Below are positions 3,907-46,037 of a DNA stretch of 64,000 nucleotides, piece by piece (the stretch's first letter is position 1; each line of letters opens with the position of its first letter). The stretch is from a bacterium. Lineage in GTDB: Bacteria > Patescibacteriota > Minisyncoccia > Moranbacterales > UBA2206. A model generated the notes under the pieces. That model searched no databases and had not been told where the DNA came from. It was given only the letters and a program-made list of their open reading frames with translations. The stretch lies in contig JAJYGF010000013.1 in assembly GCA_021785125.1 (NCBI GenBank), positions 41,413 to 105,412 of the forward strand, given 5' to 3'. The translations under genes were made by a program, and so were the position numbers.

Positions 3907-3991
3907 TTATTTTTTTTAAAAAGTTATTTGTTATCTGACATTATTATAATTTAGTCTGGCGCATTTGGCAAATATGTTCGGCAGCCGCAAT

Positions 3992-30273: not shown

Positions 30274-31060
30274 AAAATATATCCATGTGGCTAAGAATAG
30301 TTTCCAGGAAGCGATAATTTATCGAGTTAGTACGCTGGCCTTTTTCTTTTCGGAAATTTTCTCTTTTATCTTTATTTTCTATCTTTGGACTTCAATTTAT
30401 AAACAAGGCGGTCAAATTGGAAATTATGAATTGAAAGATTTGATTCTGTATTATTTCGTATCAAATTTTTTATGGATAACCATCAAGGGGACTGACATAG
30501 CTTGGGATGTTGGGGATGAAATACGAATGGGCCAAATAACTAATGTATTGCTTAGGCCCATGAGATATGCAAGATATAAGTTTTCACAGATGTTGGGAGG
30601 ATTGGCTTATCGAACCAGCGTATTCATGGTGGTTTTTATGCTGATTGGAATTTTTTTAAGTTCTTATATCAATTTCAATATTGAATTGAAAAATATTTTA
30701 TTTTTTATAATTTTCTTTGCAATCGGTTACGTTATTAATTATTTTATTTTTTACACTTTAGGATTGACCACATTTTGGCTTGGCCTGGTGCGTGGATTTA
30801 ATTTCTCGCTTAGTGTGATTACTGGATTTATGGATGGAAGTGTCATCCCGGTTGATTTGTTGCCTAGAATTGTCCGAAACATAAATGATTTTTTGCCATT
30901 TAAATATATCATCTTTACTCCGGTATCTGTTTTTAATGGAAAAATACAGGTCACTTGGGAAACCTTGGTCATACCGATTGCTTGGATTATTGTTTTATAT
31001 TTATTGGCTAAATTTGTTTTGAATAAAGGAATAAAAGTTTATGAGGGATATGGTGCGTAA
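30257..31060 (+). CDS. ABC-2 type transporter permease
   Basis: 6 TM helices; overlaps ATPase gene end. Confidence 0.6.
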   Translation: MWKRNKKYIHVAKNSFQEAIIYRVSTLAFFFSEIFSFIFIFYLWTSIYKQGGQIGNYELKDLILYYFVSNFLWITIKGTDIAWDVGDEIRMGQITNVLLRPMRYARYKFSQMLGGLAYRTSVFMVVFMLIGIFLSSYINFNIELKNILFFIIFFAIGYVINYFIFYTLGLTTFWLGLVRGFNFSLSVITGFMDGSVIPVDLLPRIVRNINDFLPFKYIIFTPVSVFNGKIQVTWETLVIPIAWIIVLYLLAKFVLNKGIKVYEGYGA

Positions 31061-31856
31061 AATTAAGAAATATTTCAGAGTATTTTTGCATTTCCAGAAA
31101 ATCGGTTTTATGAATAGGATGCAGTACAGAATTAATTTTGTGGTTATAATAGCCACCGTCTTTATTCAGATTGCTATTAATCTGGCTTTCATACGAGTGG
31201 TTTTCGGATTTGTGAATAATATTTCAGGGTGGGGCTATTACCAGACTCTCATCGTACTTGCCTCATATCTGATTATCGATGGTGCCACATGGGCACTCAC
31301 CGCTTATGTTAACGGAATTGATAGTCATGTAAGAATGGGAACGCTCGATGGAATCATCTTGAAGCCGATAAATACTCAGTTTATAGTTTCATTTTGGAGA
31401 GGCGACACAGAAAATTTGGGGGAGTTGGCTACGGGTGTTGGCTTGGCCGTATATAGCTTGAGCCATTTGAAAATAAATACGAGAATTCTTCTTGAAAATA
31501 TATCCGCTTATGTGCTATTAATTATTTTGGCGCTGGTCATAATCTATAGCTTGAGTATCCTTGTTAGATCAGCTGTATTTTGGCTAATGAATAGTGGCGG
31601 ACTTTTCTCTATCGTTATGAAAATTACCGAATCTTCCAAATATCCTATAGATATCTTTTTTCATAAAATAGTTCGAGGATTTTTCACTTTCATCATTCCC
31701 TTAGCTTTCGTAGCTACCGTTCCAGCCGAAATTTTGACCAAGGGAATTGACTTGAAATTGATCGCCATGTCGGTTATAATGGCAACGCTTTTCTTTGTCG
31801 TGAGTCGCAAGTTTTTTAACTTCGCGCTCAGGCATTATTCAAGCGCTAGTAGTTGA
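31041..31856 (+). CDS. ABC-2 type transporter permease (second subunit)
   Basis: 6 TM helices; overlaps preceding permease. Confidence 0.6.
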   Translation: MRDMVRKIKKYFRVFLHFQKIGFMNRMQYRINFVVIIATVFIQIAINLAFIRVVFGFVNNISGWGYYQTLIVLASYLIIDGATWALTAYVNGIDSHVRMGTLDGIILKPINTQFIVSFWRGDTENLGELATGVGLAVYSLSHLKINTRILLENISAYVLLIILALVIIYSLSILVRSAVFWLMNSGGLFSIVMKITESSKYPIDIFFHKIVRGFFTFIIPLAFVATVPAEILTKGIDLKLIAMSVIMATLFFVVSRKFFNFALRHYSSASS

Positions 31857-31923
31857 CAGAAGGTTTTGACAAGCTGAGAGGGCGCTCCGGTATTCTTATT
31901 TTTTTAAAATAGATAAGTTATAA

Positions 31924-32595
31924 TTGATTTATATTTTCATGAAAAACGAAGACATTATTAAAAAAACTGCTGATTTTGTAAAAAAAGAACTAGATGGAGA
32001 ATCAACCGGACATGATTGGTTGCATACCTATAGGGTTTGGAAAATGTCGATGAAAATAGCAAAAAGCGAAAAAAATGTTGATAAATTCATTGTTCAATTA
32101 GCTGCCTTACTTCACGATGTTGCAGATTGGAAATTTAATCAGGAAAACAGTTTGATTGGCTCAAGATTAGCAGGTAAATGGCTTAGAAAAATGAAAGTTG
32201 ATACTAGAATTATTATCGATGTTTGTAATATTATAGACAACATGTCTTTTAAGGGCATGAAAGTAAGCTCACGAATGTTAACCAAGGAAGGAATGATAGT
32301 TCAGGATGCTGATAGGTTGGATGCTATAGGTGCAATTGGCATTGCAAGAACATTTGCATTTGGAGGACATGTAAAAAGGGAAATATATAATCCAAAGTTA
32401 GAAATTATTCAGCATAAATCATTTCAGGAATATAAAAAAACGCAAACAACCTCTATAAACCATTTTTATGAAAAACTTCTTTTGTTGAAAGATTTAATGA
32501 ATACTAGTTTGGCAAAAAAAATTGCGAGAAAAAGACACAAATTTTTAGAAAATTTTTTGGAAGAATTTTTTAGTGAATGGCATGATTCGAATTAA
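31924..32595 (+). CDS. HD-domain phosphohydrolase
   Basis: H...HD motif (HDWLHTYRV...LLHDVADWK), downstream D. Confidence 0.7.
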   Translation: MIYIFMKNEDIIKKTADFVKKELDGESTGHDWLHTYRVWKMSMKIAKSEKNVDKFIVQLAALLHDVADWKFNQENSLIGSRLAGKWLRKMKVDTRIIIDVCNIIDNMSFKGMKVSSRMLTKEGMIVQDADRLDAIGAIGIARTFAFGGHVKREIYNPKLEIIQHKSFQEYKKTQTTSINHFYEKLLLLKDLMNTSLAKKIARKRHKFLENFLEEFFSEWHDSN

Positions 32596-32706
32596 GCTCT
32601 TGAACTCACCTGCTAAACACTTGACTAGGTTTTATAGATGTGATTAAATAGGATGTGCTGTTGTCATTTTCGAGAATCTTGAAAACTTAACAAAGGAGGC
32701 TGGGCA

Positions 32707-33642
32707 ATGAGTATGAAGCGAGAATTGCGTTTTGTTGTAACGCAACGATGTATTTACGAATGCTCGTTTTGTCATGGTGAAGGGCTGCAAACAGTCAAGC
32801 GTGACGCATTAAGTATAGAAGATTTTCGCTTCATATTTAATGTTGCACGATCGCAGTTTGGTTTTGATTATACAACCCTGAGCGGCGGTGAGCCATTGGT
32901 GCGTAGCGACATAGTTGAAATTGCTGCCGGATTGTATTATGATTCTGGCAAGACAACTCTAACGACTAATGGTTTTTTTCTTGATGAAAAACTTTACATC
33001 GGCAACTATATAAAGCGCTTAAACGTTTCTATACACAGTTTCAATAGAGATGTTTATGAGTCTATAGTTGGAAGATCGAATGTTTTTCATAGGGTAATCT
33101 ATGGGCTGAAGAAGTTTCGCTCAAAATATCCGGAGGTGGAGATAAGACTAAACACCACTGTGGTAAGGGGGTTGAATTCCGGCGAGAAGGACATTGATGA
33201 CTTATTGAAGTTTGCTTCTAGATTAGGAGCTTCAATAAAATTCGTCGAGCTTTATCCTTCATCGTGTTCAGGATTCTTTCCTATAAAGGAAGTGGAGATT
33301 ATGCTTATGCAACGCGGATTTAAGCAATTCATTTCACCTACTCGTAAGCGTGACTACTCCGATGGAGTTATTGAGGTAGGATTAACTAAGATTTTTTGTG
33401 CTGCTGCGGCTGATAGCGAAATCCCATCTCGGTTTTGCAATGAGAATAACGATCTCTTTGTATCGCCTGATGGTATGCTTAAGCCTTGCAGACACAACTT
33501 GATGGAGGTAGATATATTGCCTGAAGTTCGTGAACGTGATGCAGAAAAATTATTTCTAAAGCTCAAAAAGGCTTTTGAGCTTTTGGGAAAAAACTGCGTT
33601 GCTACTGGTACGAATATGGTTCAGCGTGACTCAAGCATCTAA
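32707..33642 (+). CDS. Radical SAM enzyme, MoaA-like (GTP 3',8-cyclase family)
   Basis: CIYECSFC (CX3CX2C), GGEPL, NTTVVRG; C-terminal Cys triad FCAAA...FCNENNDLFVSPDGMLKPC like MoaA auxiliary cluster. Confidence 0.7.
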   Translation: MSMKRELRFVVTQRCIYECSFCHGEGLQTVKRDALSIEDFRFIFNVARSQFGFDYTTLSGGEPLVRSDIVEIAAGLYYDSGKTTLTTNGFFLDEKLYIGNYIKRLNVSIHSFNRDVYESIVGRSNVFHRVIYGLKKFRSKYPEVEIRLNTTVVRGLNSGEKDIDDLLKFASRLGASIKFVELYPSSCSGFFPIKEVEIMLMQRGFKQFISPTRKRDYSDGVIEVGLTKIFCAAAADSEIPSRFCNENNDLFVSPDGMLKPCRHNLMEVDILPEVRERDAEKLFLKLKKAFELLGKNCVATGTNMVQRDSSI

Positions 33643-33660
33643 TTTTGTAAGGAGAAGAAC

Positions 33661-34110
33661 ATGGAGAGACATTTCAATGTGACCGTTTACATCTTTAACC
33701 CTGAAAATGGGAAATTCCTTTTCTTGAGACATAAGAAGCTCAAGAAGTGGCTTTCTCCCGGGGGACATATAGATGCAAACGAAAATCCGGAGGTTGCCGC
33801 CCTGCGTGAAGTTATGGAAGAAACCGGTATCGAGACAAGGTTGATTGGTGAACGCTTGCCAAGCGAAGATGACTTAATCTGTCCATTTGGAATCCAGCTA
33901 AACGTGATTGCGCCTGGTGAACATGAGCACATGGATTTGATTTATTTGTCCATTCCTGTAGGAAGTACTGAGGAAAGGTTGAATAAAGAAGAATCCAATG
34001 ATATCGCTTGGTTTAGCTTGGATCAGATTTTGGCACCAGAATTTGATTCCTTTGAAAAAAACAAAAAATGGTGCGCATTTTTCCATGAGTTCATGGAAAA
34101 AAACCGCTAA
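33661..34110 (+). CDS. NUDIX hydrolase
   Basis: Nudix box GGHIDANENPEVAALREVMEETGIE. Confidence 0.8.
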   Translation: MERHFNVTVYIFNPENGKFLFLRHKKLKKWLSPGGHIDANENPEVAALREVMEETGIETRLIGERLPSEDDLICPFGIQLNVIAPGEHEHMDLIYLSIPVGSTEERLNKEESNDIAWFSLDQILAPEFDSFEKNKKWCAFFHEFMEKNR

Positions 34111-34228: not shown

Positions 34229-35086
34229 ATGAAAATCACCCTCAGTCAATTTGCCGGGTTTTGTGACGGCGTACGACGGGCCTTTGACATCGTCAATAAT
34301 CTGGATGAGGCGAAGACAAAAAAGCCTGTTTTTGTGCTGGGATCTTTGGTGCATAACCAGGACGTGGTGGACAGGATCGAGGAAAAGGGCATCCGGAAGA
34401 TCGACATGCAGAAATTTCTGGACGCCGAGCCGGGAGAGATCGGCACGCTTATCATAACCGCGCATGGCGTCGGGCCGCAGATTTATGAAACCGCCAAAGA
34501 AAAAAATATCGAACTGATCGACACGACCTGTCCGCGGGTCATCAAAGTTCAGCGCCTGGCCCAGCTGTATGTCAAAAAAGGCTATTCCATAGTTCTGGTC
34601 GGCGACAAGGACCACAAAGAAGTAAGAAGTATTTTTGAATGGGGTGGAGAAAAAGCGGCCATAGTGTCCGATGAGGATGATTTGGCCAGGCTGAATCTTG
34701 GACAGACTGAAAAGATCATTATCTTGTCGCAGACGACTCAGAGCAAGGATTTTTTGGAGTTGGTGCATAGCCGTCTCAGGGAAAGATATCCGTCCGTCGA
34801 AATCATGGACACGATCTGCCTGACGACGGATCAGCGCCAGGACGAGATCAAGAAATTGGCGGCCGAGAATGAGGCGGTGGTTGTGATCGGCGGCAAAGAA
34901 AGCGCCAATTCGAACCGGCTGTTTGAGATCGCCAAAAGCATCAATGAAAAGACAGTCTTCATCGAAAGAGTGGATCAGCTCGAAGATTCCTTCTTGCAGG
35001 GGGCGCAAAGCGTGGCAGTGACGGCCGGGGCGTCGACTCCCGATTGGATCATCGAAGGTGTCATGAAGCGCCTGGAAAGGTTGTAA
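34229..35086 (+). CDS. ispH: 4-hydroxy-3-methylbut-2-enyl diphosphate reductase IspH/LytB
   Basis: GFCDGVRRA N-terminal Cys motif, TTCPRV, ICLTT Cys ligands. Confidence 0.9.
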   Translation: MKITLSQFAGFCDGVRRAFDIVNNLDEAKTKKPVFVLGSLVHNQDVVDRIEEKGIRKIDMQKFLDAEPGEIGTLIITAHGVGPQIYETAKEKNIELIDTTCPRVIKVQRLAQLYVKKGYSIVLVGDKDHKEVRSIFEWGGEKAAIVSDEDDLARLNLGQTEKIIILSQTTQSKDFLELVHSRLRERYPSVEIMDTICLTTDQRQDEIKKLAAENEAVVVIGGKESANSNRLFEIAKSINEKTVFIERVDQLEDSFLQGAQSVAVTAGASTPDWIIEGVMKRLERL

Positions 35087-35143
35087 AATTGCGCCAAAGG
35101 CTGTATGATACATTCATAACAAGCCTTTTTATCAAATAAAAAA

Positions 35144-35950
35144 ATGACCAAGATCGCCATCGTCGAGGATGACCCGATGATATCCGAGATATATTACAAG
35201 AAGTTCACAGACTCGGGATTCGAAGTTCTGACCGCCGCTTCCGGCGACCAGCTTTTGAATCTGCTCAAAGATCAAAAAGTCGACGTGGTCATGACCGATC
35301 TGATCATGCCCAAGATGGACGGCTTCCAGCTGATCGAGAAATTGCGCGGCGGTGAATATAATCCGGACATCAAGATCATCGTCGCGAGCAATCTGAGCCA
35401 GAGGGAGGATCGTGAAAAGGCTATCAATCTGGGCGCCAACGGATTCGTCGCCAAGGCGGAATATAGTCCGAGCGAATTGGTCAAGGAAATTCAAAGGCTT
35501 TTGAATCAATTCCAGGAACAGCAGAAGAACGAGTATCGCGAGAATGCCAAAGCGTCGGGGGTGGACATGGCCGATTCCGGGCCGAAGAAAAAGATCCTGA
35601 TGATCGAAGACGAGGAGATCTTCATCGACATGTTTGGATCGAAGATGAAGCAGGATGGCTATGATGTGGATGCGGCGAGAAACGGTGCATGGGGCATCAA
35701 GGAAGCGCTGAACGGGGAATATGACCTGTTTGTCATCGATATGGTGATGCCGGCCATGACAGGCGACGAGATCGTGGCGAAATTGAAATTGGAAGACAAG
35801 ACCAAAAATATTCCGATCATCGTGCTGTCGGCTTCGGTTGACGACGGGGTGGCGAAGAAGGTCAAGGATTTGGGCGTGCAGGAATTTTTCGTGAAGACGC
35901 AGATCACGCCGAGCGAATTGTCCAAAAAGATCGCAGAAATTTTAGTATAA
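35144..35950 (+). CDS. Tandem-receiver (REC-REC) response regulator protein without output domain
   Basis: Two CheY-like domains each with DD...D phospho-acceptor (VVMTDLIMP and LFVIDMVMP) and K. Confidence 0.75.
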   Translation: MTKIAIVEDDPMISEIYYKKFTDSGFEVLTAASGDQLLNLLKDQKVDVVMTDLIMPKMDGFQLIEKLRGGEYNPDIKIIVASNLSQREDREKAINLGANGFVAKAEYSPSELVKEIQRLLNQFQEQQKNEYRENAKASGVDMADSGPKKKILMIEDEEIFIDMFGSKMKQDGYDVDAARNGAWGIKEALNGEYDLFVIDMVMPAMTGDEIVAKLKLEDKTKNIPIIVLSASVDDGVAKKVKDLGVQEFFVKTQITPSELSKKIAEILV

Positions 35951-35973
35951 GAAATTAAGTAAGAATCAATCAG

Positions 35974-37293
35974 ATGGAAAGAACATTGATCAGCGAGACT
36001 CCGCAATCGGTCGGACAAATAGTGAAGCTCAAAGGATGGGTGAATATCCGCCGCGACCATGGCAAGCTCATCTTCATCGATCTTCGCGACCGGTCGGGCA
36101 TGATCCAGATGGTCATCATTCCGGACAAGGAGGAGGCATATAAAGTTGCCAAAGACGTGCGCAACGAATTTGTGATTGAAGTGGAGGGATTGGTGAAGCA
36201 AAGGCCCGGAGGCGCGACCAAAGAGGGATCGGCGACCGGCGGAGTGGAGATTGAAGTCGAAAAGATGGCAGTCATATCACAGCCGGAGGATGTATTACCT
36301 TTGGACGTTTCTGAAAATGATATGAATGTTAATCTTGATACATTATTAAATCTTCGCCATCTGACTTTACGAAATAAAAAAATCAAATCTATTTTCAAAG
36401 TCTATGCGGAAGTTATAAATGCTTATGCAAAGATAATGAATCGTGAGGAATTTACGGAAATAAAAACTCCTAAAATCTTAAATTCAGCAACTGAAGGGGG
36501 CGCCAATTTTTTCAAGATAAAATATTTCGAGAAAGAGGCGTTTCTGGCGCAGAGCCCGCAATTCTACAAGCAGGCGGGAGCCGGTATATTCGAGCGTGTT
36601 TTTGAGATTGGTACGGTTTTCCGAGCAGAACCGCATTTTACTACGAGGCATGTCAATGAATATACAAGTTTGGATGCGGAGATGGCTTTCATCGACGGGT
36701 TTGAGGATGTGATGGATGAGCTAGAAAAAGTTATGAAATTTATGATGGAGTCAGTTAATGAACATTGCCGGGAAGAATTGGCGATGTTTGGCGCGGAAAT
36801 CCTGCCGGTCAAATCCATCCCGCGCATAAAATTGACCGAAGCGTTGAGCATTCTGGAAAAGGAATATGGCAAGAAGATGGAAGAGGTCGACATCGATGCG
36901 GAAGGCGAGCGCATGATATGTGAATGGGCCAGAAAGAATTATGATTCGGATTTCGTCTTTCTGACGCATTATCCATCCGCCATCCGGCCGTTCTATTCCA
37001 TGCCGAGCGCCGATCCGCAATATACGGAAACCTTCGACCTTCTTTTCATGGGCGTGGAAATTGCTAGCGGCGGGCAAAGAATACATGATTACAATCAATT
37101 GATTTCTAGTATAAAGAAACATAAGCTGAATCCGGATGATTTTGAGCATTATCTGGATATTTTCAAATACGGCATGCCGCCGCATGGAGGCTGGGGACTC
37201 GGTTCAGAAAGGATCGTCCAGAAGATTCTTGGATTGGGCAGTATCAAGGAAGCTATCCTTTTCCCAAGAGACGTGAAAAGATTGACCCCGTAG
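35974..37293 (+). CDS. aspS: Aspartyl-tRNA synthetase, archaeal/type-2 (possibly non-discriminating)
   Basis: N-terminal OB fold, class II motifs 1-3 (FRAEPHFTTRH..., GGQRIHD, GMPPHGGWGLGSERIV). Confidence 0.85.
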   Translation: MERTLISETPQSVGQIVKLKGWVNIRRDHGKLIFIDLRDRSGMIQMVIIPDKEEAYKVAKDVRNEFVIEVEGLVKQRPGGATKEGSATGGVEIEVEKMAVISQPEDVLPLDVSENDMNVNLDTLLNLRHLTLRNKKIKSIFKVYAEVINAYAKIMNREEFTEIKTPKILNSATEGGANFFKIKYFEKEAFLAQSPQFYKQAGAGIFERVFEIGTVFRAEPHFTTRHVNEYTSLDAEMAFIDGFEDVMDELEKVMKFMMESVNEHCREELAMFGAEILPVKSIPRIKLTEALSILEKEYGKKMEEVDIDAEGERMICEWARKNYDSDFVFLTHYPSAIRPFYSMPSADPQYTETFDLLFMGVEIASGGQRIHDYNQLISSIKKHKLNPDDFEHYLDIFKYGMPPHGGWGLGSERIVQKILGLGSIKEAILFPRDVKRLTP

Positions 37294-37326
37294 TTTTCTA
37301 TACTTCATAAAATAAAAACAAAATCG

Positions 37327-38550
37327 ATGAAGACCGACCATGTCGAAAGGCTGGATCGCAAGCGCATAGAAATTGCAAATATCGTTTCTCTTCTGATGGG
37401 TTTTTCCCAATCCATCTTGGCCTATGTCTTGTCATCCTATTTCAAGATCGCATCCGGCAGTGAGAATGTCGGCACTTTCTACATGGTTGCGTATGTCATA
37501 TCCCTCGTCATCCTTCTCAATCTGCACAAGATCGTGCGCCTGATCGGCAAAGCGAATGTGTATTATTTCGCCCTGATCGCAAAAATCATCTCGGTCACCC
37601 TGCTGATTTTTCTGGATCCGTCCCGGCTGGGCATCGCTCTTTTGATGATTTATCTTATCGCGGTCAATGTCGAATGGACGACGCTGGACGTGATTTTGGA
37701 ATCATATTCGACCGACAAAAAATCCGGCCGCATCAGGGGACTGCATCTGACCATTCTCAACGCGGGATTCTTGTTCGGGCCGCTGATCTCGGCCAAGATT
37801 CTGGATGTCATGAGCTATCAAGGAATCTTCTTCTTCGCGCTGGTTTCCAGCGCCTTGACCCTTGCCTTCGCTCTGCCGGCTTTTCGCAACATCAACCACC
37901 GGTTCGAACAGAAGCTGAAGGTGGCAGAAATGATCCGCAAAGTAATTTCCAGAAAAGATCTGCTCCGGATCTATTATGTCTCATTTTCCTTGGAATTTTT
38001 CTATGCCTTGATGGTTGTCTACACCCCACTCTATCTTCTGGACCTGGGCTATTCCTGGGACAAGATCGGCATCATCTTCACAATCATGCTCGTCCCGTTC
38101 GTCGTCTTGCAATATCCGATGGGCATTTTGGCTGACAAGAAATTCGGAGAGAAGGAATTTCTGATCTTTTCCGTTTTCCTGATGGGCATCTCGACTTTCA
38201 TGATATTTTTCATCGGCGCGGCCAGCGTGGCGGTCTGGGCGTCGATACTTTTCATCACGCGGGTCGGGGCGGCGCTCGTCGAGATCCTGCGCGATTCATA
38301 TTTTTTCAAGCGGATCGACGGCTATGACGTGGATATGATCAATTTTTTCCGGACAGCCGTGCCGATGGCATACATTTTGGGAACTATGGTCGCCACTTTG
38401 GCCGTGTTTTTCTTTTCGACCAGATTCATCTTTCTGATCATCGCGGCCGTGGTGCTGTCGGCACTCTATCCGGCTTTCAAGCTGGCGGACAACAAGTCGG
38501 AGAAAGAGATGGCGCATGAGCAATATGTCCTGGCGGAAGAGAGGCAATAG
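37327..38550 (+). CDS. MFS transporter
   Basis: 12 TM helices in two 6-TM halves, 407 aa. Confidence 0.65.
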   Translation: MKTDHVERLDRKRIEIANIVSLLMGFSQSILAYVLSSYFKIASGSENVGTFYMVAYVISLVILLNLHKIVRLIGKANVYYFALIAKIISVTLLIFLDPSRLGIALLMIYLIAVNVEWTTLDVILESYSTDKKSGRIRGLHLTILNAGFLFGPLISAKILDVMSYQGIFFFALVSSALTLAFALPAFRNINHRFEQKLKVAEMIRKVISRKDLLRIYYVSFSLEFFYALMVVYTPLYLLDLGYSWDKIGIIFTIMLVPFVVLQYPMGILADKKFGEKEFLIFSVFLMGISTFMIFFIGAASVAVWASILFITRVGAALVEILRDSYFFKRIDGYDVDMINFFRTAVPMAYILGTMVATLAVFFFSTRFIFLIIAAVVLSALYPAFKLADNKSEKEMAHEQYVLAEERQ

Positions 38551-38697
38551 GACTACTTGATTTAATTACGTAATTAAATATGTAATTCCGCGCTCGGGAG
38601 AAAAGCGGTTTTTTTTGTCTATGGTATAATAAAATCACAAAAATCTTGATCCGTCTTGGCGGGTCGCGTATTTTTCTTGAAACAAAAATAACATCAT

Positions 38698-41031
38698 ATG
38701 GAAAACAAGGGACTCACGAGCAAAGAGGCTGGGAAAAAATTGCGGGCGATCGGGCCTAACAAGATCGAAGAGAAAAAGCCGGGATTTTTCGCGAAATTTT
38801 TCAAATGGCTGATCTCGCCGATCTCGCTCATGCTGTTGGCGGCGGCCGGACTGTCCTTTTTTTCCGGCAAGATCTTCGATTTCTATTTCATCCTTTTCTT
38901 GATGGCGCTCAATTTCTTCGTCAGCTTCTGGCAGGAGAAGAAAGCCGACAATGCCATCCAGAAATTGCAGGAAACTCTCTTGGTCAAAGTCAAGGTCATG
39001 CGGGACGGCGCTTGGACGACTTTGGATTCGGCCTTTCTGGTGCCGGGCGATGTCATCCAGATCGGAGTGGGCAACATCATTCCGGCCGACATCCGGATCC
39101 TTTCTGCATCGAACCTTTTCATCAACGAGGCGGCGCTGACCGGCGAATCTCTGCCGCAGGAAAAATTGCCCAAAGACAATGTCTATTCCGGCGCGTTCGT
39201 CGTGACCGGCATGGCGGAAGCCGAGGTGCAGGCGACCGGCAAGAACACATATTTCAACAAGACGCTCCTCATGGTGGACAACGTCGCACAGAGGAGCTTG
39301 CTGGAACAGGACATTTTGCGCATCGCCAAATTCCTTTCTATCTTGAGCCTTGTTGCGGTGGTCATTTTGACTGCAGTGTTTATGCTGACCAAGGCAAGCT
39401 TTCTCGACACTCTGACGCTCGATCTGAGTCTGGTCATCGCCGGCATTCCGATCTCTCTGCCGACGGTCATCACTTTGATCATCAGCCTTGGCATTGTCGC
39501 GCTGACCAAGAAGGGCGCGGTCGTGAGAAGGCTGTCATCGCTCCAGGATCTGGCCAATGTGGATCTTCTGTTCACGGACAAGACTGGCACGCTGACCAAA
39601 AACGAGATCACGGTGCACGGAGTGAAGGCATATGATGCCAATGAGGAAAAAGTCATTTTGTATGCGCTCCTGGCGGAAGCCGAGGACAAGGATAATCCGA
39701 TCACCCGGGCCATTTCAAAAAAAGCGGATGAATTGAAACTGGAAGCCGGAACATATGAGACGCTGAATTTCATCCCGGCTGATTCGACGCGCAAAAGAAG
39801 CTCGGCTTCGGTGGAATCAAAAAGCGATGGCAAGATCTTCATCTCTTCCGGGGCGCCGCAGATCATTGAAAAGTTCTGTGCGCTGGATGAAGAACGGAAG
39901 AAAAGATTCGAAAAAGACATCGAAGAGGCGGCGCAAGCCGGCTATCGGTCTTTGGCGGTCGCCATCAACACGAAGGATAATGTCGAAAAAGATATGCAGT
40001 TGGTCGGATTGGTCATGCTCTCCGACACTTTGAGAAAAGAAGCTAAAAGCGTTATCAGATTTCTGGATGAGAACGGAGTCGATGTGCGGATGCTGACCGG
40101 TGATCACAAAGCGATCGGCGAAAGAGTCGGCAAAGAATTGGGTTTGGCGCCCGAGCAGATATTTTCCGAGATTTTGCCGGAGGACAAGTATAATTTTGTG
40201 AATGCGGCCAAAGGCAAGCATATCGTGGCGGTGACCGGCGACGGCGTGAACGATCTGCCGGCCGTCAAAAGCGCGGACGTGGGAATTGCAGTCTCGAATG
40301 CGGTGGATGCGCTCAAAAGCTCGGCCGACATCGTCCTGCTTCTGTCCAGCATCTCGGTCATTAAAGACGCCATCATCGAAGCCAGAAAGATTTTCGCCCG
40401 CGTCTATAGCTATTCCGTTTATCGTATCTCAGAAAGCTTCCGGCTGATCATCACGATCGCGGTTTTGGGACTCATCTATCACGACTATCCGCTGTTGCCG
40501 ATCCAATTGATCCTTTTGGCGCTTCTCAACGACATTCCGATCATTTCTTTGGCCTATGACCGCGTGAAAGTGGCGACCAAGCCGGCCAAGATCAATGTCA
40601 GGGAAAGATTCATCTTGAGCACCTTGTTTGGCCTGACCGGCGTGGCGAACAGCTTGATCCTGTTTTTCATTATGCTGCATTGGACGCATCTGAGTTGGGA
40701 CATGATTCAGACGATCTTTTTTCTCAAGCTGGCCATCTCTGGACATCTTCTGATCTATGTGGCGCACACCAAAGAACGCTGGTGGAAATTCCTGCCGAGC
40801 AGGCAGGTCATTCTGGCGACGTTGGGAACGCAGGCGGTCGCGACCGTCCTGGCTCTGACCGGAACATTTGTATCTAAAGTGCCCATTGAATGGGTCATAA
40901 TTGTATGGATTTGGTCTTTCTTTTGGATGCAGGTCAGCGAAGTGACGAAGGTCCTCGCCGACCGGATCTTCAAAAAAAGAGACGCGGATGAAGTCGCTTT
41001 GGCTTCAGTTCTGGCAAATCCGGGTAAATAA
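38698..41031 (+). CDS. Cation-transporting P-type ATPase (P2/P3-type)
   Basis: DKTGTLT phosphorylation site, TGES, MLTGDH, VTGDGVNDLPAVKSADVGIAV hinge. Confidence 0.85.
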   Translation: MENKGLTSKEAGKKLRAIGPNKIEEKKPGFFAKFFKWLISPISLMLLAAAGLSFFSGKIFDFYFILFLMALNFFVSFWQEKKADNAIQKLQETLLVKVKVMRDGAWTTLDSAFLVPGDVIQIGVGNIIPADIRILSASNLFINEAALTGESLPQEKLPKDNVYSGAFVVTGMAEAEVQATGKNTYFNKTLLMVDNVAQRSLLEQDILRIAKFLSILSLVAVVILTAVFMLTKASFLDTLTLDLSLVIAGIPISLPTVITLIISLGIVALTKKGAVVRRLSSLQDLANVDLLFTDKTGTLTKNEITVHGVKAYDANEEKVILYALLAEAEDKDNPITRAISKKADELKLEAGTYETLNFIPADSTRKRSSASVESKSDGKIFISSGAPQIIEKFCALDEERKKRFEKDIEEAAQAGYRSLAVAINTKDNVEKDMQLVGLVMLSDTLRKEAKSVIRFLDENGVDVRMLTGDHKAIGERVGKELGLAPEQIFSEILPEDKYNFVNAAKGKHIVAVTGDGVNDLPAVKSADVGIAVSNAVDALKSSADIVLLLSSISVIKDAIIEARKIFARVYSYSVYRISESFRLIITIAVLGLIYHDYPLLPIQLILLALLNDIPIISLAYDRVKVATKPAKINVRERFILSTLFGLTGVANSLILFFIMLHWTHLSWDMIQTIFFLKLAISGHLLIYVAHTKERWWKFLPSRQVILATLGTQAVATVLALTGTFVSKVPIEWVIIVWIWSFFWMQVSEVTKVLADRIFKKRDADEVALASVLANPGK

Positions 41032-41050
41032 AGAGTGGAAATGTCTTTGC

Positions 41051-41081
41051 GGCGCGCCTGGAACAGGCGCGCCTTTATGTT
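41051..41081. terminator. Rho-independent terminator GGCGCGCCTG-GAA-CAGGCGCGCC + T-run
   Basis: Perfect 10-bp GC stem after P-type ATPase. Confidence 0.65.
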
Positions 41082-41135
41082 GAAATATGCAAACAAATCT
41101 GCTAAAATACGTATTTACATGTGTAATATCCAATC

Positions 41136-41711
41136 ATGGCGGAAGCAAAAGAAAAGTCCGATTCTGAACTGATCGGTCTGGCCAAAGAAAATCCGGAGTC
41201 TTTCGGATTGCTGATGGAGCGGTATCAAGGCCCGTTGTTTCATTATGTCCGCCGCCTTACCCAGGGCACGCACGAGGAGATCGAGGATCTCCTGCAGGAA
41301 ATTTTCATCAAGATATATCAGCATCTCAATGAGTATGAATCATCGCTGAAATTCTCCAGTTGGGCGTACCGCGTGGCGCACAACCATGTGGTCGACCATT
41401 TCAGAAAGATCAGTGCCCGTCCGAAAGCGGATGCGCTGGAAGAAAAAGAGTGGGAAACTTTGATCCGCGCCAGCATCGATCCGGAAAAGGATTTTTCCAA
41501 CCGCGATTGCCTCGACCGCATCAAGGAGTGTCTGGAAGATCTGCCTCTGCAGTACAAAGAAATCCTGATCCTCAGATTTTTGGAAGAGAAAAGCTATGAT
41601 GAAATCATGGATATTTTGAAAAAACCCAAAGGCAGTGTGGCGACGCTCATCGCGCGCGGACGGGGAAAACTGTTGGACAAGATGCGGGAGAAAAATATAA
41701 ATTGTTTTTAA
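41136..41711 (+). CDS. ECF-type RNA polymerase sigma-70 factor (paralog of 5756..6397)
   Basis: Regions 2 and 4 conserved; same ERYQGxLF...EDLLQ...FSSWxYRxAHN pattern as first ECF sigma. Confidence 0.85.
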   Translation: MAEAKEKSDSELIGLAKENPESFGLLMERYQGPLFHYVRRLTQGTHEEIEDLLQEIFIKIYQHLNEYESSLKFSSWAYRVAHNHVVDHFRKISARPKADALEEKEWETLIRASIDPEKDFSNRDCLDRIKECLEDLPLQYKEILILRFLEEKSYDEIMDILKKPKGSVATLIARGRGKLLDKMREKNINCF

Positions 41712-41715
41712 ATAT

Positions 41716-42600
41716 ATGGATAGCAATAACCTGATCAAAAATACATTGGCGGAGATTGAGAAGAAGCACATCAAGCCGGAACCGAAAAGCAAGTATCTTC
41801 TGAAAAAATATTCTCGCTGGGGGATGTTTTCGGCAGTGGCATTGGCTGCGGCGTTGGTGGGCGCGGTCATGTATGATCTTTTGTCGCAATTGGACTGGAG
41901 CACGTATCAATTTTCGCACGCGAATTTTTTCAGCTATGCGCTGTCGCTTTTGCCATATCTGTGGGTAGTCATTTTTATCATTCTGGCGGGGCTGGCTTTC
42001 TGGGTGATCCGGAAAACGAACAGCGGATATCGTTTCGGACGCATGCAGATCATTTTGATCGTGGGCGGCGCTATTTTGGCAGCCGGCACGGTTTTGGCAG
42101 TTTCCAATTTTGGCGGCAATTTGAATTCCGCGATGGTACAGGATTTTCCGAACTACGCGCGGATGGTGCCGACCAAAGAGTCGCAGTGGTCGCAGCCGCA
42201 AAGCGGACTCTTGTCCGGCACGATTGAAAATGTTCAAGGAAACATCATCACACTTCAAGATTTCCAAGGCCAAGAATGGCAGGTGGATCTGGATCAGAAT
42301 ACTTTGGTCCGGCCGACGGCGGACATGCAGGCGGGGGAACTGATCAAAATTATCGGTACGGTTTCCGGCCAGAATATTTTCAAGGCGACTGAGATCCGGC
42401 CATGGGGCGGCATGGGCAGCATGATGCAAAATATGATGGGAAGCGGCGGCGGATGCGCGACTGGCGGCGATGTATGTCAATTGCCGGGCGGAAATATCAA
42501 TGGTGACGGACCGCAAGGCCCGGCGCAAGGCAATGGTTATGGTCCGGAGGGAAATGGTCCGCGCGGCATGATGCAGGGCGGCGGCATGATGGGACGCTAG
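41716..42600 (+). CDS. Membrane protein with Met/Gly-rich C-terminal tail, putative anti-sigma factor
   Basis: 5 nt after sigma stop; TM helices; C-terminus GMGSMMQNMMGSGGG...GMMQGGGMMGR. Confidence 0.4.
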   Translation: MDSNNLIKNTLAEIEKKHIKPEPKSKYLLKKYSRWGMFSAVALAAALVGAVMYDLLSQLDWSTYQFSHANFFSYALSLLPYLWVVIFIILAGLAFWVIRKTNSGYRFGRMQIILIVGGAILAAGTVLAVSNFGGNLNSAMVQDFPNYARMVPTKESQWSQPQSGLLSGTIENVQGNIITLQDFQGQEWQVDLDQNTLVRPTADMQAGELIKIIGTVSGQNIFKATEIRPWGGMGSMMQNMMGSGGGCATGGDVCQLPGGNINGDGPQGPAQGNGYGPEGNGPRGMMQGGGMMGR

Positions 42601-42681
42601 GCGAAATGAAAACTTTTCCGTTCCGTTACGTCCTATAGATTGCTAGCGTTTCAAATCAAATAAGAATTAATAATCATAACT

Positions 42682-43005
42682 ATGAAAAAAACAGGATATA
42701 TCGTTGCGGGAGTTGTCGGAGCTTTGGCGATCGGAGTTTTGGCAACAGCCGGCGCCTTCGCGTATCGCGGCAATCCGACGCAATTCGGCCCGAACCATCC
42801 GTACGGATACGGATATCAAAATCAGGCTCAGAACAATTCCGACAATCAAAATTTTTTTGATGAGATGAGATCATACATGTTCGGCAACCGTTACGGCAAC
42901 AACAATGCTGATCCGGATGGTGATCGCGCGCCGGTGAATCAAGGACAAGGCTACGGTCCCGGTTACGGCTACGGCGGCGGCTTCGGTTGTCCGATGTGGA
43001 ACTAA
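42682..43005 (+). CDS. Small secreted Gly/Tyr/Asn-rich low-complexity protein
   Basis: Signal peptide MKKTGYIVAGVVGALAIGVLATAGAFA then YGYGYQNQAQNN...GYGPGYGYGGGFGCPMWN; terminator hairpin 43025..43052. Confidence 0.45.
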   Translation: MKKTGYIVAGVVGALAIGVLATAGAFAYRGNPTQFGPNHPYGYGYQNQAQNNSDNQNFFDEMRSYMFGNRYGNNNADPDGDRAPVNQGQGYGPGYGYGGGFGCPMWN

Positions 43006-43104
43006 AATATTTCGAACAACAAAGCAGGATGCAAAATCCTGTTTTTGTTTTGCAAAAATTTTTTGTTTGTAATAAATTATATAAATAACAAATAAGCTAA
43101 AGTT

Positions 43105-43683
43105 ATGGAAAAATTGGAAATCGACAAAAACAGCACGGCTCTGGTGGTTATCGATCTGCAAAAAGGCATCGCCGGCATGCCGACCCAGCCGTATGCGGCC
43201 GAGGCGGTGATTGCGAACGCGGCTAAATTGGCGCAGGCATTCCGTCAAAATGACATGCCGGTCTTTTTGGTGCGGGTGAAACCTTCCGCCGATGCGCGCG
43301 ACGCGCTTAAGCCGGAAGCGGATGTGAAGATGCAGATGAATGCTTCCGCCATGCCGGCCGATTGGAGCGAGATCGTGCCGGAGATGGGGCCGGAGCCGAC
43401 GGATTTTCTGATCACCAAAAAACAATGGGGCGCTTTCTATGGCACCGAGCTGGATCTGCAGCTCAGAAGACGCAAGATCGGGGCGATCGTCCTATGCGGC
43501 ATCGCCACCAGCATTGGCGTGGAAAGCACGGCCCGGTTCGCGTATGAATACGGCTATGAGCAGATATTCGCCGAAGACGCGATGGCCAGCCGCTCAAAAG
43601 AAGAACATGACAGCACGATCAAAAATATTTTTCCGCGCATGGGCCGCGTCCGGAAGACGGAAGAAATTCTGGCGGAATTATAG
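43105..43683 (+). CDS. Isochorismatase-family cysteine hydrolase
   Basis: ALVVIDLQ Asp, Lys, and catalytic Cys in IVLCGIATSIGVEST. Confidence 0.75.
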   Translation: MEKLEIDKNSTALVVIDLQKGIAGMPTQPYAAEAVIANAAKLAQAFRQNDMPVFLVRVKPSADARDALKPEADVKMQMNASAMPADWSEIVPEMGPEPTDFLITKKQWGAFYGTELDLQLRRRKIGAIVLCGIATSIGVESTARFAYEYGYEQIFAEDAMASRSKEEHDSTIKNIFPRMGRVRKTEEILAEL

Positions 43684-43780
43684 AATTGAAAGATCCGTCG
43701 TTTGCGGGTGGTTTTTTATACACAGGGACAAAAGAGAGAAATAGTGATATGATAACACTATAATAAATAAAAACAAAAAA

Positions 43781-44329
43781 ATGATTGAAACAAAGCCGCA
43801 ATCAAGGCCCGGCTATGAATATCTGACCACCTACATGTTGGGGAAAGTCATCCAAGACCTGACCGTGGAATTTTGCAATCGCTGGATCGACAGGAAAAGC
43901 AGGACACATGATCAGATGGTCCAAGCGGCCAGGAGCAATCCGCAGAACATCGCCGAAGGGTACACGGTCGAATCACTCAAGAGCTACATCATGCTTGTCG
44001 GCGTCGCGCACGGTTCAAACGAAGAATTGGCCAAGGATTATCAAGATTTTCTACGGCAGAGAAATTTTCATATCTGGAGCAAGGACGATCCGCGAGTTAG
44101 GGTGTTTAGGGAATTTAGGGTGATTTGGGTTTCCCCAACATCCCTAAACACCCCAAAGTTGCCCAACAATCCCGAACAAGCCGCAAATTTTTTGCTCACT
44201 CTTTGCAATCTTGAAGGCTTCTTGATCAAGCGTCATGTCGATTCATTGAAGCTGAAACATGAGCGCGAAGGCGGTTTCTCGGAAAATCTTTACAGGAAAA
44301 GGATCGAATTCAGAAGAAGCGGCGATTAG
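43781..44329 (+). CDS. Four-helix-bundle protein (23S rRNA intervening-sequence protein family) with internal insertion
   Basis: QMVQAARSNPQNIAEGY...SYIMLVGVAHGSNEEL pattern; ~60 aa longer than typical due to G-tract/C-tract insert. Confidence 0.6.
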   Translation: MIETKPQSRPGYEYLTTYMLGKVIQDLTVEFCNRWIDRKSRTHDQMVQAARSNPQNIAEGYTVESLKSYIMLVGVAHGSNEELAKDYQDFLRQRNFHIWSKDDPRVRVFREFRVIWVSPTSLNTPKLPNNPEQAANFLLTLCNLEGFLIKRHVDSLKLKHEREGGFSENLYRKRIEFRRSGD

Positions 44330-44641
44330 TCATGTGCTATAATATAAACAATAACTATTAACAAACAAGTATGTCTATCGAAGCGATCATATTTTATCTC
44401 TTGCTCATCGATAGTATCTCGTGCAACCTGATCGTCCTGTTCGGCGAGAAATGGTACGTGAAGCATTTCCGCATCGTCTCGCGCCTGTTTCCGCCGGCCA
44501 AAGGCTGGGCCGCGTATTATCTGGTCCTGGTGCTGTGGATCGGAACGCTCATATATCGGGCCGGATTGTTCTAAGCAAAAAAGAGCTTTGGCTCTTTGCG
44601 GATAATATAAAAACAAAAAAAGAGAGGAGGTGTGATAACAC

Positions 44642-44893
44642 ATGGCAAAATTGAGCATCAAGGGATTGGCGTTGGGCTTCGGCCTCGCGTGGGGATTGTA
44701 TATGCTTTGCTTGGGCTGGGTCTCCGTGACCGGCTGGGGCGCCGGAATAGTGAGTAATTTTTCTTCTCTGTATATCGGATTTGCACCCGGATTTGTCGGT
44801 GGCATCGTCGGCGCCCTGTGGGGATTTTTGGACGGGGCGGTCGGCGGCATCCTGATTGCGTATTTCTATAACATGTTTGCGGCGAAAAAATAA
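44642..44893 (+). CDS. Small glycine-zipper (GxxxG-rich) membrane protein
   Basis: GAGGAGG RBS 11 nt upstream; 83 aa; two hydrophobic Gly-rich helices; terminator after. Confidence 0.4.
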   Translation: MAKLSIKGLALGFGLAWGLYMLCLGWVSVTGWGAGIVSNFSSLYIGFAPGFVGGIVGALWGFLDGAVGGILIAYFYNMFAAKK

Positions 44894-44981
44894 GCCGCGC
44901 CTCAGAACAACAAAAAGCTCGCAATTTTCTGCGGGCTTTTTGTTTCGAGCGCGTGAAGCGTGGTAGAATATAAATGTAATT

Positions 44982-46037
44982 GTGAAAAAAAGAGAGATGA
45001 TCTATCAGTTGATAATTTTTATTATTTCCGGCGCGTTTGTCTGGCTGGCCGGCACGACATTGACTAAGACGACTGATTCTTTGGATTGCCGCTTCAAGAT
45101 CGGAGAAGCTTTCGGCGGCCTGATCCTTCTGGGCATTACCGGCAATCTGACGGACATCGCGGTGGCCATCAGTGCCGCTTGGCGCGGACATATTCCGGTC
45201 GTCATCGGCAACTTGATCGGCGGCATTGCGATCCAGACGCTTTTGATCGTGATTTTTGATTTCGCAGTCAGGGGCAAGCGGCCGTTGTCATATCTGGCTG
45301 GATCGATGACCTTGTTTTTTGAAACGGTTTTCGCGATCGCGCTGGTCGTGATGGCGCTCGTCGGCACGTATATTCCCGCCAAAGATTCGATCTGGCACAT
45401 GAATCCGTTTTCAATCCTGATTCTGGCGGCGTGGTTCGTCGGACTGTATCTGGTCGACAAGGCGCACAAAATCAGGCGCTTCAACGAAGTGGAGAATGAT
45501 GCCGATCCTGGCCGGTCGCATGACGAATGCCGGACGACGGAGAACAGCGCTTTCTATTCCGGAAAGAAGACGTTCTATGTGATCAAAGTTTTTGTCCTGG
45601 CTTCCGCCGTCACTTTAGTCGCCGGCTATTTTTTGGAAGAATCGGGCGCAGCCTTGGCGGAATCGCTGGGTCTGAATGCGGGAATTTTCGCGGCTACGAT
45701 CTTGGCCTTGGTCACTTCCTTGCCCGAGCTCAGCACCGGCTTGGAAGCGGTCTTGATCGGCGACAATCATCTGGCCTTCAGTGATATCTGGGGCGGCAAC
45801 GCGTTCATGATGGTGCCGTTTTTTGCGGCCGATCTTCTGGTCGGCAAGCCGGTTTTGTCATACGCCCAAAACTCGGACCGTTTGGTCGCATTTTTGGGCG
45901 TCGCCATGATGGCGGCATACGCGGCCGCTTTTCTGGCGAGATGGCACAAGCGATATTTCCGTCTGGGTCTCGATTCCATCCTTGAGATCCTTATTTTCGC
46001 CGGCGGAATGGCGGTTTTGTTTGGAATCGTGAAATGA
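44982..46037 (+). CDS. CaCA-family Na+/Ca2+ (cation) antiporter
   Basis: Two alpha-repeats (GNLTDIAVAIS.. and LVTSLPELSTG), ~10 TM. Confidence 0.7.
   Translation: MKKREMIYQLIIFIISGAFVWLAGTTLTKTTDSLDCRFKIGEAFGGLILLGITGNLTDIAVAISAAWRGHIPVVIGNLIGGIAIQTLLIVIFDFAVRGKRPLSYLAGSMTLFFETVFAIALVVMALVGTYIPAKDSIWHMNPFSILILAAWFVGLYLVDKAHKIRRFNEVENDADPGRSHDECRTTENSAFYSGKKTFYVIKVFVLASAVTLVAGYFLEESGAALAESLGLNAGIFAATILALVTSLPELSTGLEAVLIGDNHLAFSDIWGGNAFMMVPFFAADLLVGKPVLSYAQNSDRLVAFLGVAMMAAYAAAFLARWHKRYFRLGLDSILEILIFAGGMAVLFGIVK

Follow-up and report, generated by a model that had tools for sequence, protein, structure and literature searches.

A conserved ECF sigma factor unit with an OB-fold membrane protein and a small secreted protein in a Moranbacteria-type bacterium

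Results and discussion

A conserved three-gene unit

In a stretch of 64,000 nucleotides from a bacterium of the Moranbacterales (contig JAJYGF010000013.1 of assembly GCA_021785125.1, positions 41,413 to 105,412; hereafter the window), genes for an extracytoplasmic function (ECF) sigma factor, a membrane protein with three transmembrane (TM) helices and a small secreted protein form a conserved three-gene unit. We think it probable that the unit is a signalling cassette of Moranbacteria-type bacteria (Candidate Phyla Radiation, CPR; Parcubacteria), self-contained and with autoregulation of its ECF sigma. The membrane partner, which belongs to an unnamed family, probably holds the sigma factor in check, and the small-protein gene is, judging by its promoter, the one clearly assigned sigma target in the window. 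An earlier note on this DNA had described four genes at 38698-43052, and their open reading frames were found where it placed them, on the forward strand. The genes and the terminators around them are as follows.

38698-41031, forward strand: gene for a P-type ATPase of 777 aa
41051..41073, forward strand: intrinsic terminator of the ATPase gene, a 10-pair stem (9 GC) followed by a T-run
41136-41711, forward strand: gene for an ECF (group 4) sigma-70 factor of 191 aa
41716-42600, forward strand: membrane-protein gene, 294 aa
42682-43005, forward strand: small secreted-protein gene, 107 aa
43021..43045, forward strand: terminator-like hairpin at the module end, a 10-pair stem with a T-run

The sigma stop codon is separated from the membrane-protein gene by 4 nt, and 81 nt lie between the membrane-protein and small-protein genes. 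Since the two terminators bracket these three genes, the transcription unit consists of the sigma factor, the membrane protein and the small protein, with the ATPase outside and its terminator marking the 5′ boundary of the module. For comparison, 34 genomic loci, mostly from Candidatus Moraniibacteriota, were recovered using a closer set of membrane-protein homologues, with L035 and L036 as further loci. The sigma gene lay directly upstream of the membrane-protein gene in all 33 loci having upstream sequence, with a gap of 4-12 nt in every locus, and the closest relative (L035/L036) had the same arrangement. Together with the conserved ECF-type promoters described below, this upholds the proposal that the three genes are one regulatory module.

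The sigma factor itself was correctly recognised as an ECF sigma. It matches Pfam Sigma70_r2 (residues 26-92, 3.3e-17) and Sigma70_r4_2 (residues 127-179, 6.1e-12) and scores 108.5 bits against TIGR02937 (cut-off 42.9). With sigma-2 and sigma-4 domains only, in about 190 aa, it belongs to the ECF group (group 4). It fell below the cut-offs of the SigW equivalog models NF007223 (103.7 bits vs 209) and TIGR02948 (85.4 vs 243.1). The sigma factors of the related loci are 36-68% identical to it.

The window holds another ECF sigma gene, its first, at 5756-6397 (forward strand). The product is 38% identical to the second, and its best match is also SigW, below the cut-off (140.6 bits). Directly after it, at 6398-6619 (forward strand), a 73-aa protein with a single TM helix is encoded, whose N-terminus aligns weakly with that of the 294-aa membrane protein (pairwise E 4e-4). 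This likeness may reflect a short sigma-binding module shared among CPR anti-sigma partners.

Promoter motif and regulatory link

The motif TGAAAAC-N15/16-CGTnnTAT, learned only from the related loci, precedes both the small-protein and the sigma genes there. As TGAAAAC-N15/16-CGT(T/A)nTAT it falls between the membrane-protein and small-protein genes of a listed set of these loci, and in most orthologous loci TGAAAAC-N15/16-CGTATTAT is found roughly 40-90 nt before the sigma start. A position weight matrix (PWM) trained on the other loci only was used to scan the window, with 200 simulated windows as the null. The promoter features of the module are listed here.

42607..42636, forward strand: ECF-type promoter of the small-protein gene, TGAAAAC-N15-CGTCCTAT (PWM match at 42608, 25.6 bits)
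42641..42648, forward strand: conserved palindrome-like element, TGCTAGCG here and TGCYRGCA in relatives, on the predicted transcription start or immediately downstream of it
41089..41117, forward strand: candidate ECF-type promoter through which the sigma operon would regulate itself, GCAAAC-N15-CGTATTTA (PWM 15.0 bits)

The score at 42608 exceeds the maximum reached in any of the simulated windows (24.9 bits). Three matches in the window scored above 14 bits (42608, 18785 and 41089), of which the one at 18785 (17.2 bits) was dismissed as it has no CGT. A simple pattern, GAAAAC-N14-17-CGT, gave 3 matches in the window with 2.8 expected and was thus uninformative alone, so the PWM was used instead. 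The site at 41089 lies 47 nt before the sigma start, in the orthologous position, and has one mismatch in its -35 element (GCAAAC). Its score is not significant window-wide, as 16% of the null windows reach 15 bits, and a sigma-70-like TTGAAA-17-TAAAAT at 41080-41108 overlaps it.

Across 365 kb of related loci the motif was strongly biased in strand, with 65 matches on the gene strand and none opposite. It preceded 25 of the 26 clustered small-protein genes, including those that have moved 2-3 kb away (L012, L029-L031), and 20 of the 30 clustered sigma genes had it no more than 200 nt away. Its presence upstream of most sigma genes implies autoregulation. Elsewhere the same promoter precedes genes for a YgaP-like membrane protein (~295 aa), a NapH/MauN-like polyferredoxin and a MacB-type permease.

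The palindrome-like element TGCYRGCA occurs at a fixed distance (~12 nt) from the -10 CGT in most small-protein promoters and is followed by AATTAATAA. Its variants TGCTGGCAGCA, TGCTAGCA and TGCCGGCA were seen in L003, L005-L010, L013, L015-L020, L022 and L024-L027, and the promoters of the sigma genes lack it. It has no match in Rfam. It may serve as an operator or be a conserved stretch at the start of the transcript.

The membrane protein

The membrane protein divides into four parts.

41716..41820, forward strand: cytoplasmic N-terminal region, ~aa 1-35, proposed sigma-binding (anti-sigma) segment; conserved I14, P21, W25/K26 and W35
41821..42105, forward strand: three TM helices, ~aa 36-130; helices 24-58, 81-99 and 109-129 of the AlphaFold2 model, with predicted local distance difference test (pLDDT) values above 90
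42106..42405, forward strand: extracytoplasmic sensor region, short helices and then a five-stranded oligonucleotide/oligosaccharide-binding (OB) fold barrel that ends in the invariant EIRPW
42406..42597, forward strand: disordered Gly/Met-rich tail, aa 231-294, with a C-x6-C pair; pLDDT below 50 for 233-292

The AlphaFold2 model (pLDDT 82.7) has a helix at 3-16, three long TM helices, a few helices outside and the barrel at 165-229. Basic residues occur in the N-terminal region and again in the loop that joins TM helices 2 and 3, from which we infer that the N-terminus is inside and that the OB domain and tail are outside. The N-terminal region is rich in Lys and Arg and comprises the helix at 3-16 and the start of the helix at 24-58. 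In the predicted structure its size and helices are compatible with the short class II segments of CnrY/NepR type. The protein does not belong to the class I anti-sigma factors (zinc-binding RsiW-like, zf-HC2, RskA), having an N-terminus of only ~35 aa with no Cys/His motif. Nor is it an NrsF (DUF1109) protein, as it has three TM helices, no DUF1109 match and Cys only in a subset of tails.

Positions W158, D182, W188, K211 and E226-I-R-P-W230 are invariant, and no His, Cys or Met is among them. The match of the barrel is to a generic fold, since OB folds from DNA-binding proteins match with equal or higher scores, and no Pfam BOF match was found for the protein. A word-indexed search gave 53 homologues, all from Parcubacteria/Moranbacteria metagenomes, and an exhaustive profile search gave 3403 representatives at 50% identity (E<=1e-3, ~225-295 aa). 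None in either set has a Pfam domain.

The tail reads GGMGSMMQNMMGSGGGC...RGMMQGGGMMGR (also given as GGMGSMMQNMMGSGGGCATGGDVC...RGMMQGGGMMGR). The earlier note had described this C-terminus as Met- and Gly-rich, and indeed its 64 residues include 24 Gly, 9 Met and 2 Cys. The coding region of the tail contains a 9-nt array of 2.1 copies, the only row returned by Tandem Repeats Finder. Among 125 family members the tail has a median length of 19 aa and follows RPW directly. These tails contain 23.8% Gly and 10.4% Met, vs 2.6% Met in the protein body. At least two Met were present in 70 of the 125 tails and at least two Cys in 18. Many end in GGMMGR, and some end in SCPMNRN or GCPMMRN, echoing the CPMWN end of the small protein of the window. 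In the most distant members of the family the tails are short, basic and free of Met. Gly/Met tails are common in the family without being universal; their absence from orthologues had been named in the earlier note as a finding that would count against its proposal.

The small secreted protein and its family

The N-terminal hydrophobic segment of the 107-aa protein ends in AFA and looks like a signal peptide, as had been proposed. The earlier description of the remainder, as almost entirely Gly/Tyr (GY) low complexity with a terminal Cys, does not hold. The protein contains 21 Gly, 13 Asn and 10 Tyr, and its mature part (~80 aa) is 20% Gly and 11% Tyr. The GY sequence is limited to two short patches, PYGYGY and GYGPGYGYGGGFG, the rest being rich in Asn, Gln and Asp, and the single Cys is the fifth residue from the C-terminal end. 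No repeat array was found in the gene with Tandem Repeats Finder, and the protein had no match in Pfam or NCBIfam.

A search with this protein alone recovered only its own cluster at 90% identity. Its family was found through the neighbours of the membrane-protein homologues. In most loci a protein of ~135-143 aa is encoded downstream of the membrane-protein gene, consisting of a signal peptide, the segment AY(R/Q)GxPxxxGPNYTPERH, a helical middle, a linker rich in Gly, Gln and Asn, and the C-terminus GGNFVDANGDGKCDxxx. The family profile covered 728 proteins, all unnamed except one (P0112), labelled "Spy/CpxP family" by the Joint Genome Institute. The gene of the 107-aa protein has the same position and promoter as the family gene of other loci. 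Its product shares with the family the N-terminus AFAYRGNPTQFGPN (AFAYRGNPxQxGPN) and the helical stretch NQNFFDEMR, about half of the helical core is gone, and GQGYGPGYGYGGGFGCPMWN replaces the C-terminal loop. This form is confined to a single cluster at 90% identity, inside which the GY patch varies (GPGPGYGRGFG in P0177), and homologues outside the cluster have no GY patches. The 107-aa protein is a lineage-specific, degenerate and shortened member of the family, and its GY look a product of decay. A frameshift origin of the GY tail was considered and rejected, as the other two frames encode nothing family-like.

In the AlphaFold2 model of a canonical member, residues 41-102 form a confident helical core (pLDDT ~90) between disordered flanks. 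The core matched no solved structure (Foldseek E at least 5, and no sequence match in the PDB), and the family profile likewise found nothing among PDB sequences. Matches of the family to Pfam Metal_resist, DUF5667, Dockerin_1 and EF-hand_5 were all below threshold, and it does not qualify as a CpxP/Spy/ZraP/CnrX family (Metal_resist, LTXXQ). A dockerin- or EF-hand-like loop, NF[VI]DxNxDGxC[DE], is present in 111 of 120 members. The residues D-A-N-G-D-G-K-C-D (loop also given as NFVDANGDGKCD) fit the dockerin/EF-hand loop pattern, and the loop may bind Ca2+. The window protein lacks it at its C-terminus and has at most a degenerate internal DPDGDR.

Short forms of 81-95 aa are encoded in L002 (6837-7124), L003 (6847-7092), L009 (6847-7092), L027 (6814-7080) and L035 (3292-3546). 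In these the helical core is wholly gone, and the signal peptide, a Gly-rich linker (often with GRGMMG) and the NFVDxNGDGxCD C-terminus are kept, so the smallest part needed for function may consist of linker and loop.

Met content is modest (family median 4.2%, window protein 3.8%). At only about 4% Met, the small proteins are not sinks of the MrpX kind. G(R/Q/K)GMM is found in 24 of 120 small proteins and also in many membrane-protein tails. One might speculate that this shared sequence type reflects the same partner or ligand.

Gene neighbourhood

Genes within 6 kb of the module were counted in 35 loci. The most frequent neighbours were an HlyD-type adaptor (15 of 35 loci), a YgaP-like protein (13), a NapH-like Fe-S protein (11), an ArsP_1 permease (8) and an ABC ATPase (8), followed by a MacB/FtsX permease (5) and Thioredoxin_3 (3). 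Genes for ApbE, Ferric_reduct, ArsR and Cation_efflux proteins were occasional neighbours. As a set these annotations point to a response to envelope, toxic-compound or redox stress, and not to one cue. The Met/Cys tails and the types of neighbour (ArsP, thioredoxin-like, NapH-like, HlyD/MacB) fit a metal, an oxidant or a general envelope signal equally well.

In L012, Thioredoxin_3 and ArsP_1 genes (3871-5162) stand between the membrane-protein and small-protein genes, the small-protein gene still having an ECF promoter of its own. An ArsP_1 permease gene (721-1680) also lies just upstream of the sigma promoter in L035. The ~295-aa YgaP-like (DUF2892) protein is encoded in L002 (3243-4196), L003 (2502-3392), L009 (2713-3603), L011 (2819-3706), L021 (3388-4275), L027 (4118-5008) and L035 (3619-4341), and its gene carries the same ECF promoter in several loci. 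It consists of a YgaP-like TM N-terminus and an uncharacterised C-terminal domain of ~230 aa (FFTKKIFVEDFNAMNKDYKQTLFETGQE...), with no Pfam or NCBIfam match past the N-terminus.

The window contains no homologue of the YgaP-like, NapH-like, Thioredoxin_3 or ArsP proteins. Its only MacB-like permease gene, at 62947-63996 (forward strand), is ~20 kb distant from the module and extends to the window edge; the product shares 33% identity with the MacB under sigma control in L008. No ECF promoter was detected for this gene within the window. Downstream of the module, a four-helix-bundle protein is encoded at 43781-44329 (forward strand), with a TIGR04258 suffix domain (47.8 bits) and a match resembling 23S rRNA intervening-sequence proteins. 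It is followed at 44642-44893 (forward strand) by the gene of an 83-aa glycine-rich membrane protein just below the holin_4 cut-off (66.8 vs 70 bits). Neither gene has an ECF promoter. An Rfam scan of 38-44.5 kb gave one sub-threshold match, to the mir-3047 precursor (44097-44154, reverse strand, 34.6 bits vs a gathering threshold of 53); lying inside the four-helix-bundle gene of a bacterial sequence, it is almost certainly spurious. G+C content climbs from ~0.34 (30000-34000) to ~0.50 (34500-46000) upstream of the module, a compositional shift within the contig.

Proposed mechanism

We infer the sequestration of the sigma factor, the nature of its cue and a feedback step as follows. The sigma factor would be co-transcribed with the 3-TM membrane protein, whose short, basic, cytoplasmic N-terminal helices would hold it inactive in the manner of CnrY/NepR rather than of the zinc-binding RsiW type. 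The sensing end would be the outside OB-fold barrel, with its invariant Trp, Asp and Glu, and the disordered Gly/Met(/Cys)-rich tail that follows. An extracytoplasmic cue would free the sigma factor through a conformational change or proteolysis of its partner. Freed sigma would then transcribe its own operon from the weak TGCAAAC-N15-CGTA site and, much more strongly, the small secreted-protein gene from its TGAAAAC-N15 promoter. The secreted protein might buffer the stress or feed back on the sensor, as CpxP and ZraP do.

An anti-sigma role of the membrane protein is suggested by its strict adjacency to the sigma gene, its membrane topology, the conserved N-terminal segment and the weak likeness to the 73-aa protein. 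Several points weigh against parts of this scheme. The membrane protein has no match in Pfam or NCBIfam, no anti-sigma domain and no His or Cys in its N-terminus; with no such domain detected, the anti-sigma role rests on gene context and topology. That no His, Cys or Met of the OB domain is invariant speaks against a classical metal site within the fold, and signalling may not need the tail, which is short or free of Met in the most distant members. This genome may have little autoregulation, since the sigma-operon site is weak, carries a -35 mismatch and overlaps a good sigma-70-type promoter. Finally, the loss of half the core and of the C-terminal loop means that the function of the window small protein may differ from the canonical one or be decaying.

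As to the cue, an envelope signal other than a metal or an oxidant is the best single candidate, though slightly short of an even chance. A thiophilic metal (Cu/Ag-like) is possible but doubtful, and an oxidant acting on Met/Cys is marginally more doubtful. Metal sensing through the Met/Cys tail in particular is possible at best; sensing of an oxidant is about as likely, and another envelope cue at least as likely as either.

Alternative explanations

The earlier note had proposed a metal or envelope-stress regulon tied to the adjacent P-type ATPase. In its metal form the regulon would sense Cu(I)/Ag(I), with the metal bound by the anti-sigma factor through its MxxM/MM tail, and would be functionally coupled to that ATPase. 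Met is about four times as frequent in the tail as in the body and stands directly after the invariant Trp on the OB fold, a subset of tails has a C-x6-C pair, and CusF is an OB-fold protein that uses Met and Trp for Cu(I)/Ag(I). In other loci, ArsP_1 (8 of 35), Thioredoxin_3, ArsR, cation-efflux and HlyD/MacB genes are nearby. However, the OB domain has no invariant metal-ligand residue, the distant family members lack tail Met, and the ATPase does not belong. The only model it passed is that of the type IIIA (P3A) H+-ATPases (TIGR01647, 647.5 bits vs a cut-off of 615.5), and it stayed below the cut-offs of the heavy-metal models TIGR01525 (285.9 vs 346.25), TIGR01511 (204.6 vs 397) and TIGR01512 (206.5 vs 313.5). 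No HMA domain was found in it with Pfam, and the motif in its fourth TM helix is IPISLPTV, not CPC, so that it cannot be placed among the P1B heavy-metal ATPases. It has its own terminator, the PWM scan of the window found no ECF-type promoter before it, and no orthologue was present in the flanks of any of the 34 related loci; one locus has an unrelated P-type ATPase fragment ~5 kb off. By its subtype, terminator, promoter and synteny the ATPase is thus ruled out as a regulon member, and it is an unrelated proton-pump-type gene whose association with the module is coincidental. The earlier note had itself named a lack of co-regulation with the ATPase as counting against its proposal, and by that measure the missing synteny refutes the ATPase link. 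We consider the Cu(I)/Ag(I) regulon unlikely.

About equally unlikely is an oxidant-sensing module resembling SigF/NrsF-MrpX, in which oxidation of tail Met/Cys by hypochlorous acid (HOCl), chloramines or peroxide would free the sigma factor for extracytoplasmic redox repair. In its favour, the tail is disordered and Met-rich, as MrpX, a protein under ECF sigma control, is Met-rich (PMC4436054), and in NrsF the signal passes through two conserved Cys (PMC3511200). The ECF promoter of the module also drives NapH-like polyferredoxin genes, and genes for ApbE, Thioredoxin_3 and Ferric_reduct are found nearby. We take the last of these to have the fold of YedZ/MsrQ. Moranbacteria-type organisms, on the other hand, typically live in anoxic groundwater, and no methionine sulfoxide reductase was seen in the locus flanks. 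The small protein is only modestly enriched in Met, far from the 20% of MrpX (PMC4436054).

Instead of an anti-sigma factor, the membrane protein may be just the effector encoded first in the operon, such as a wall protein or a ligand-binding protein with an OB fold, the sigma factor being controlled otherwise or only by its own transcription. The missing anti-sigma domain and the cytoplasmic segment of only ~35 aa would fit this, and some ECF groups have no cognate anti-sigma factor. However, CnrY has a short class II anti-sigma segment of similar size. The strict adjacency with a gap of 4-12 nt in every locus, the conserved N-terminal segment, the N-in topology typical of membrane anti-sigma factors and the weak N-terminal likeness to the partner of the other ECF sigma also speak for a regulator, so that we hold this possibility to be quite improbable.

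Least of all do we favour the small protein as a structural or amyloid-like Gly/Tyr wall protein, as the earlier note had suggested: this is highly improbable, for although the mature part has its Gly and Tyr and its two patches, and a few canonical members gave sub-threshold Pfam Mfp-3 matches, there is no repeat array, the patches vary within a single cluster and are not conserved in homologues, those homologues have a confident helical core and a dockerin-like (Ca-loop-like) end instead, and only ~80 aa remain after signal-peptide cleavage.

Significance

CPR bacteria have tiny genomes and few regulators, and the literature covered here contained no paper about the ECF sigma factors of CPR bacteria, Parcubacteria or Patescibacteria. 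The autoregulated cassette favoured here gives a testable wiring diagram for one CPR ECF system, comprising sigma factor, partner, promoter motif and a set of promoter-bearing genes. The partner comes from a very large family without a Pfam match and combines an OB-fold sensor with a Met-rich tail. If confirmed as an anti-sigma factor, it would represent a new sensor architecture for ECF signalling and would give a handle on the envelope stress monitored by these uncultivated organisms. For annotation, the tempting but wrong tie to a "metal" ATPase is removed, and the eye-catching GY-rich reading frame turns out to be a decayed family member, not a new structural protein.

A more far-reaching version is quite improbable in our judgement. 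The 3-TM/OB-fold proteins would be a large, unnamed, CPR-wide anti-sigma class (>3,400 clusters at 50% identity), their invariant Trp and Met/Cys tail acting as a CusF-like soft-metal or Met-oxidation sensor. The secreted protein, with its GxGMM/CPM-type segments, would compete for or buffer the same ligand and so close a feedback loop. If true, this would be among the first defined signal-transduction circuits in CPR bacteria.

Comparison with known systems

SigW-RsiW of Bacillus subtilis (ECF30-type) is likewise an autoregulated ECF sigma co-transcribed with a membrane partner. SigW was the best-scoring named NCBIfam model for both ECF sigma factors of the window, each far below its cut-off. 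The SigW consensus is TGAAAC-N16-CGTA, which TGAAAAC-N15/16-CGT closely resembles; the likeness to SigW is in promoter type only. Unlike RsiW, the partner described here spans the membrane three times and lacks both the zinc-binding HxxxCxxC and a class I anti-sigma domain; outside it carries an OB fold and a Gly/Met tail.

In SigF-NrsF of Azospira and Caulobacter, an ECF sigma is also paired with a multi-pass negative regulator that has a short cytoplasmic N-terminus and outward sensing residues (PMC4436054, PMC3511200, PMC11626156). A small regulon around a Sec-exported stress-buffering protein is common to both, and SigF-NrsF responds to metals or reactive chlorine. With MrpX, the ECF sigma drives a natively unfolded, Met-rich periplasmic oxidant sink (PMC4436054). 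Under Cr/Cd stress, signalling passes through the two conserved NrsF Cys residues (PMC3511200), and SigF also controls the copper-binding bufferins, which are small exported proteins (PMC11626156). NrsF, however, is a predicted six-TM DUF1109 protein without an OB domain, and no such Pfam match was obtained here. The exported protein of our module is neither 20% Met, as MrpX is, nor a Cys-rich precursor of a ribosomally synthesised and post-translationally modified peptide, as the bufferins are. Unlike the MrpX and bufferin systems, it has no MNIO or YedY genes nearby.

CnrYXH of Cupriavidus metallidurans has the same three-part plan of sigma factor, short membrane anti-sigma (cytoplasmic segment of ~30-45 aa) and small helical extracytoplasmic protein. 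Six of the 36 small-protein family members gave faint matches to Metal_resist (PF13801), the best with E 0.024 and 13.7 bits vs a cut-off of 29.2. We take that Pfam family to include CnrX and ZraP. Unlike in CnrYXH, the small protein here appears as a target of the sigma factor and not as a co-transcribed sensor.

CpxP, Spy and ZraP are, like the small protein, small helical stress-induced exported proteins, able to feed back on a sensor. The C-terminus of E. coli ZraP is rich in Gly and Met and contains Cys, and thus resembles the membrane-protein tail described here and GGGFGCPMWN. The three show no significant sequence or fold similarity to the small-protein family and are under two-component systems, not an ECF sigma.

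Lastly, the outside domain of the membrane protein is modelled as a five-stranded OB barrel, the fold of the periplasmic proteins of the BOF/YgiW and CusF types. Unlike in those proteins, the OB domain of the module is fused to a 3-TM anchor, and its gene follows a sigma gene.

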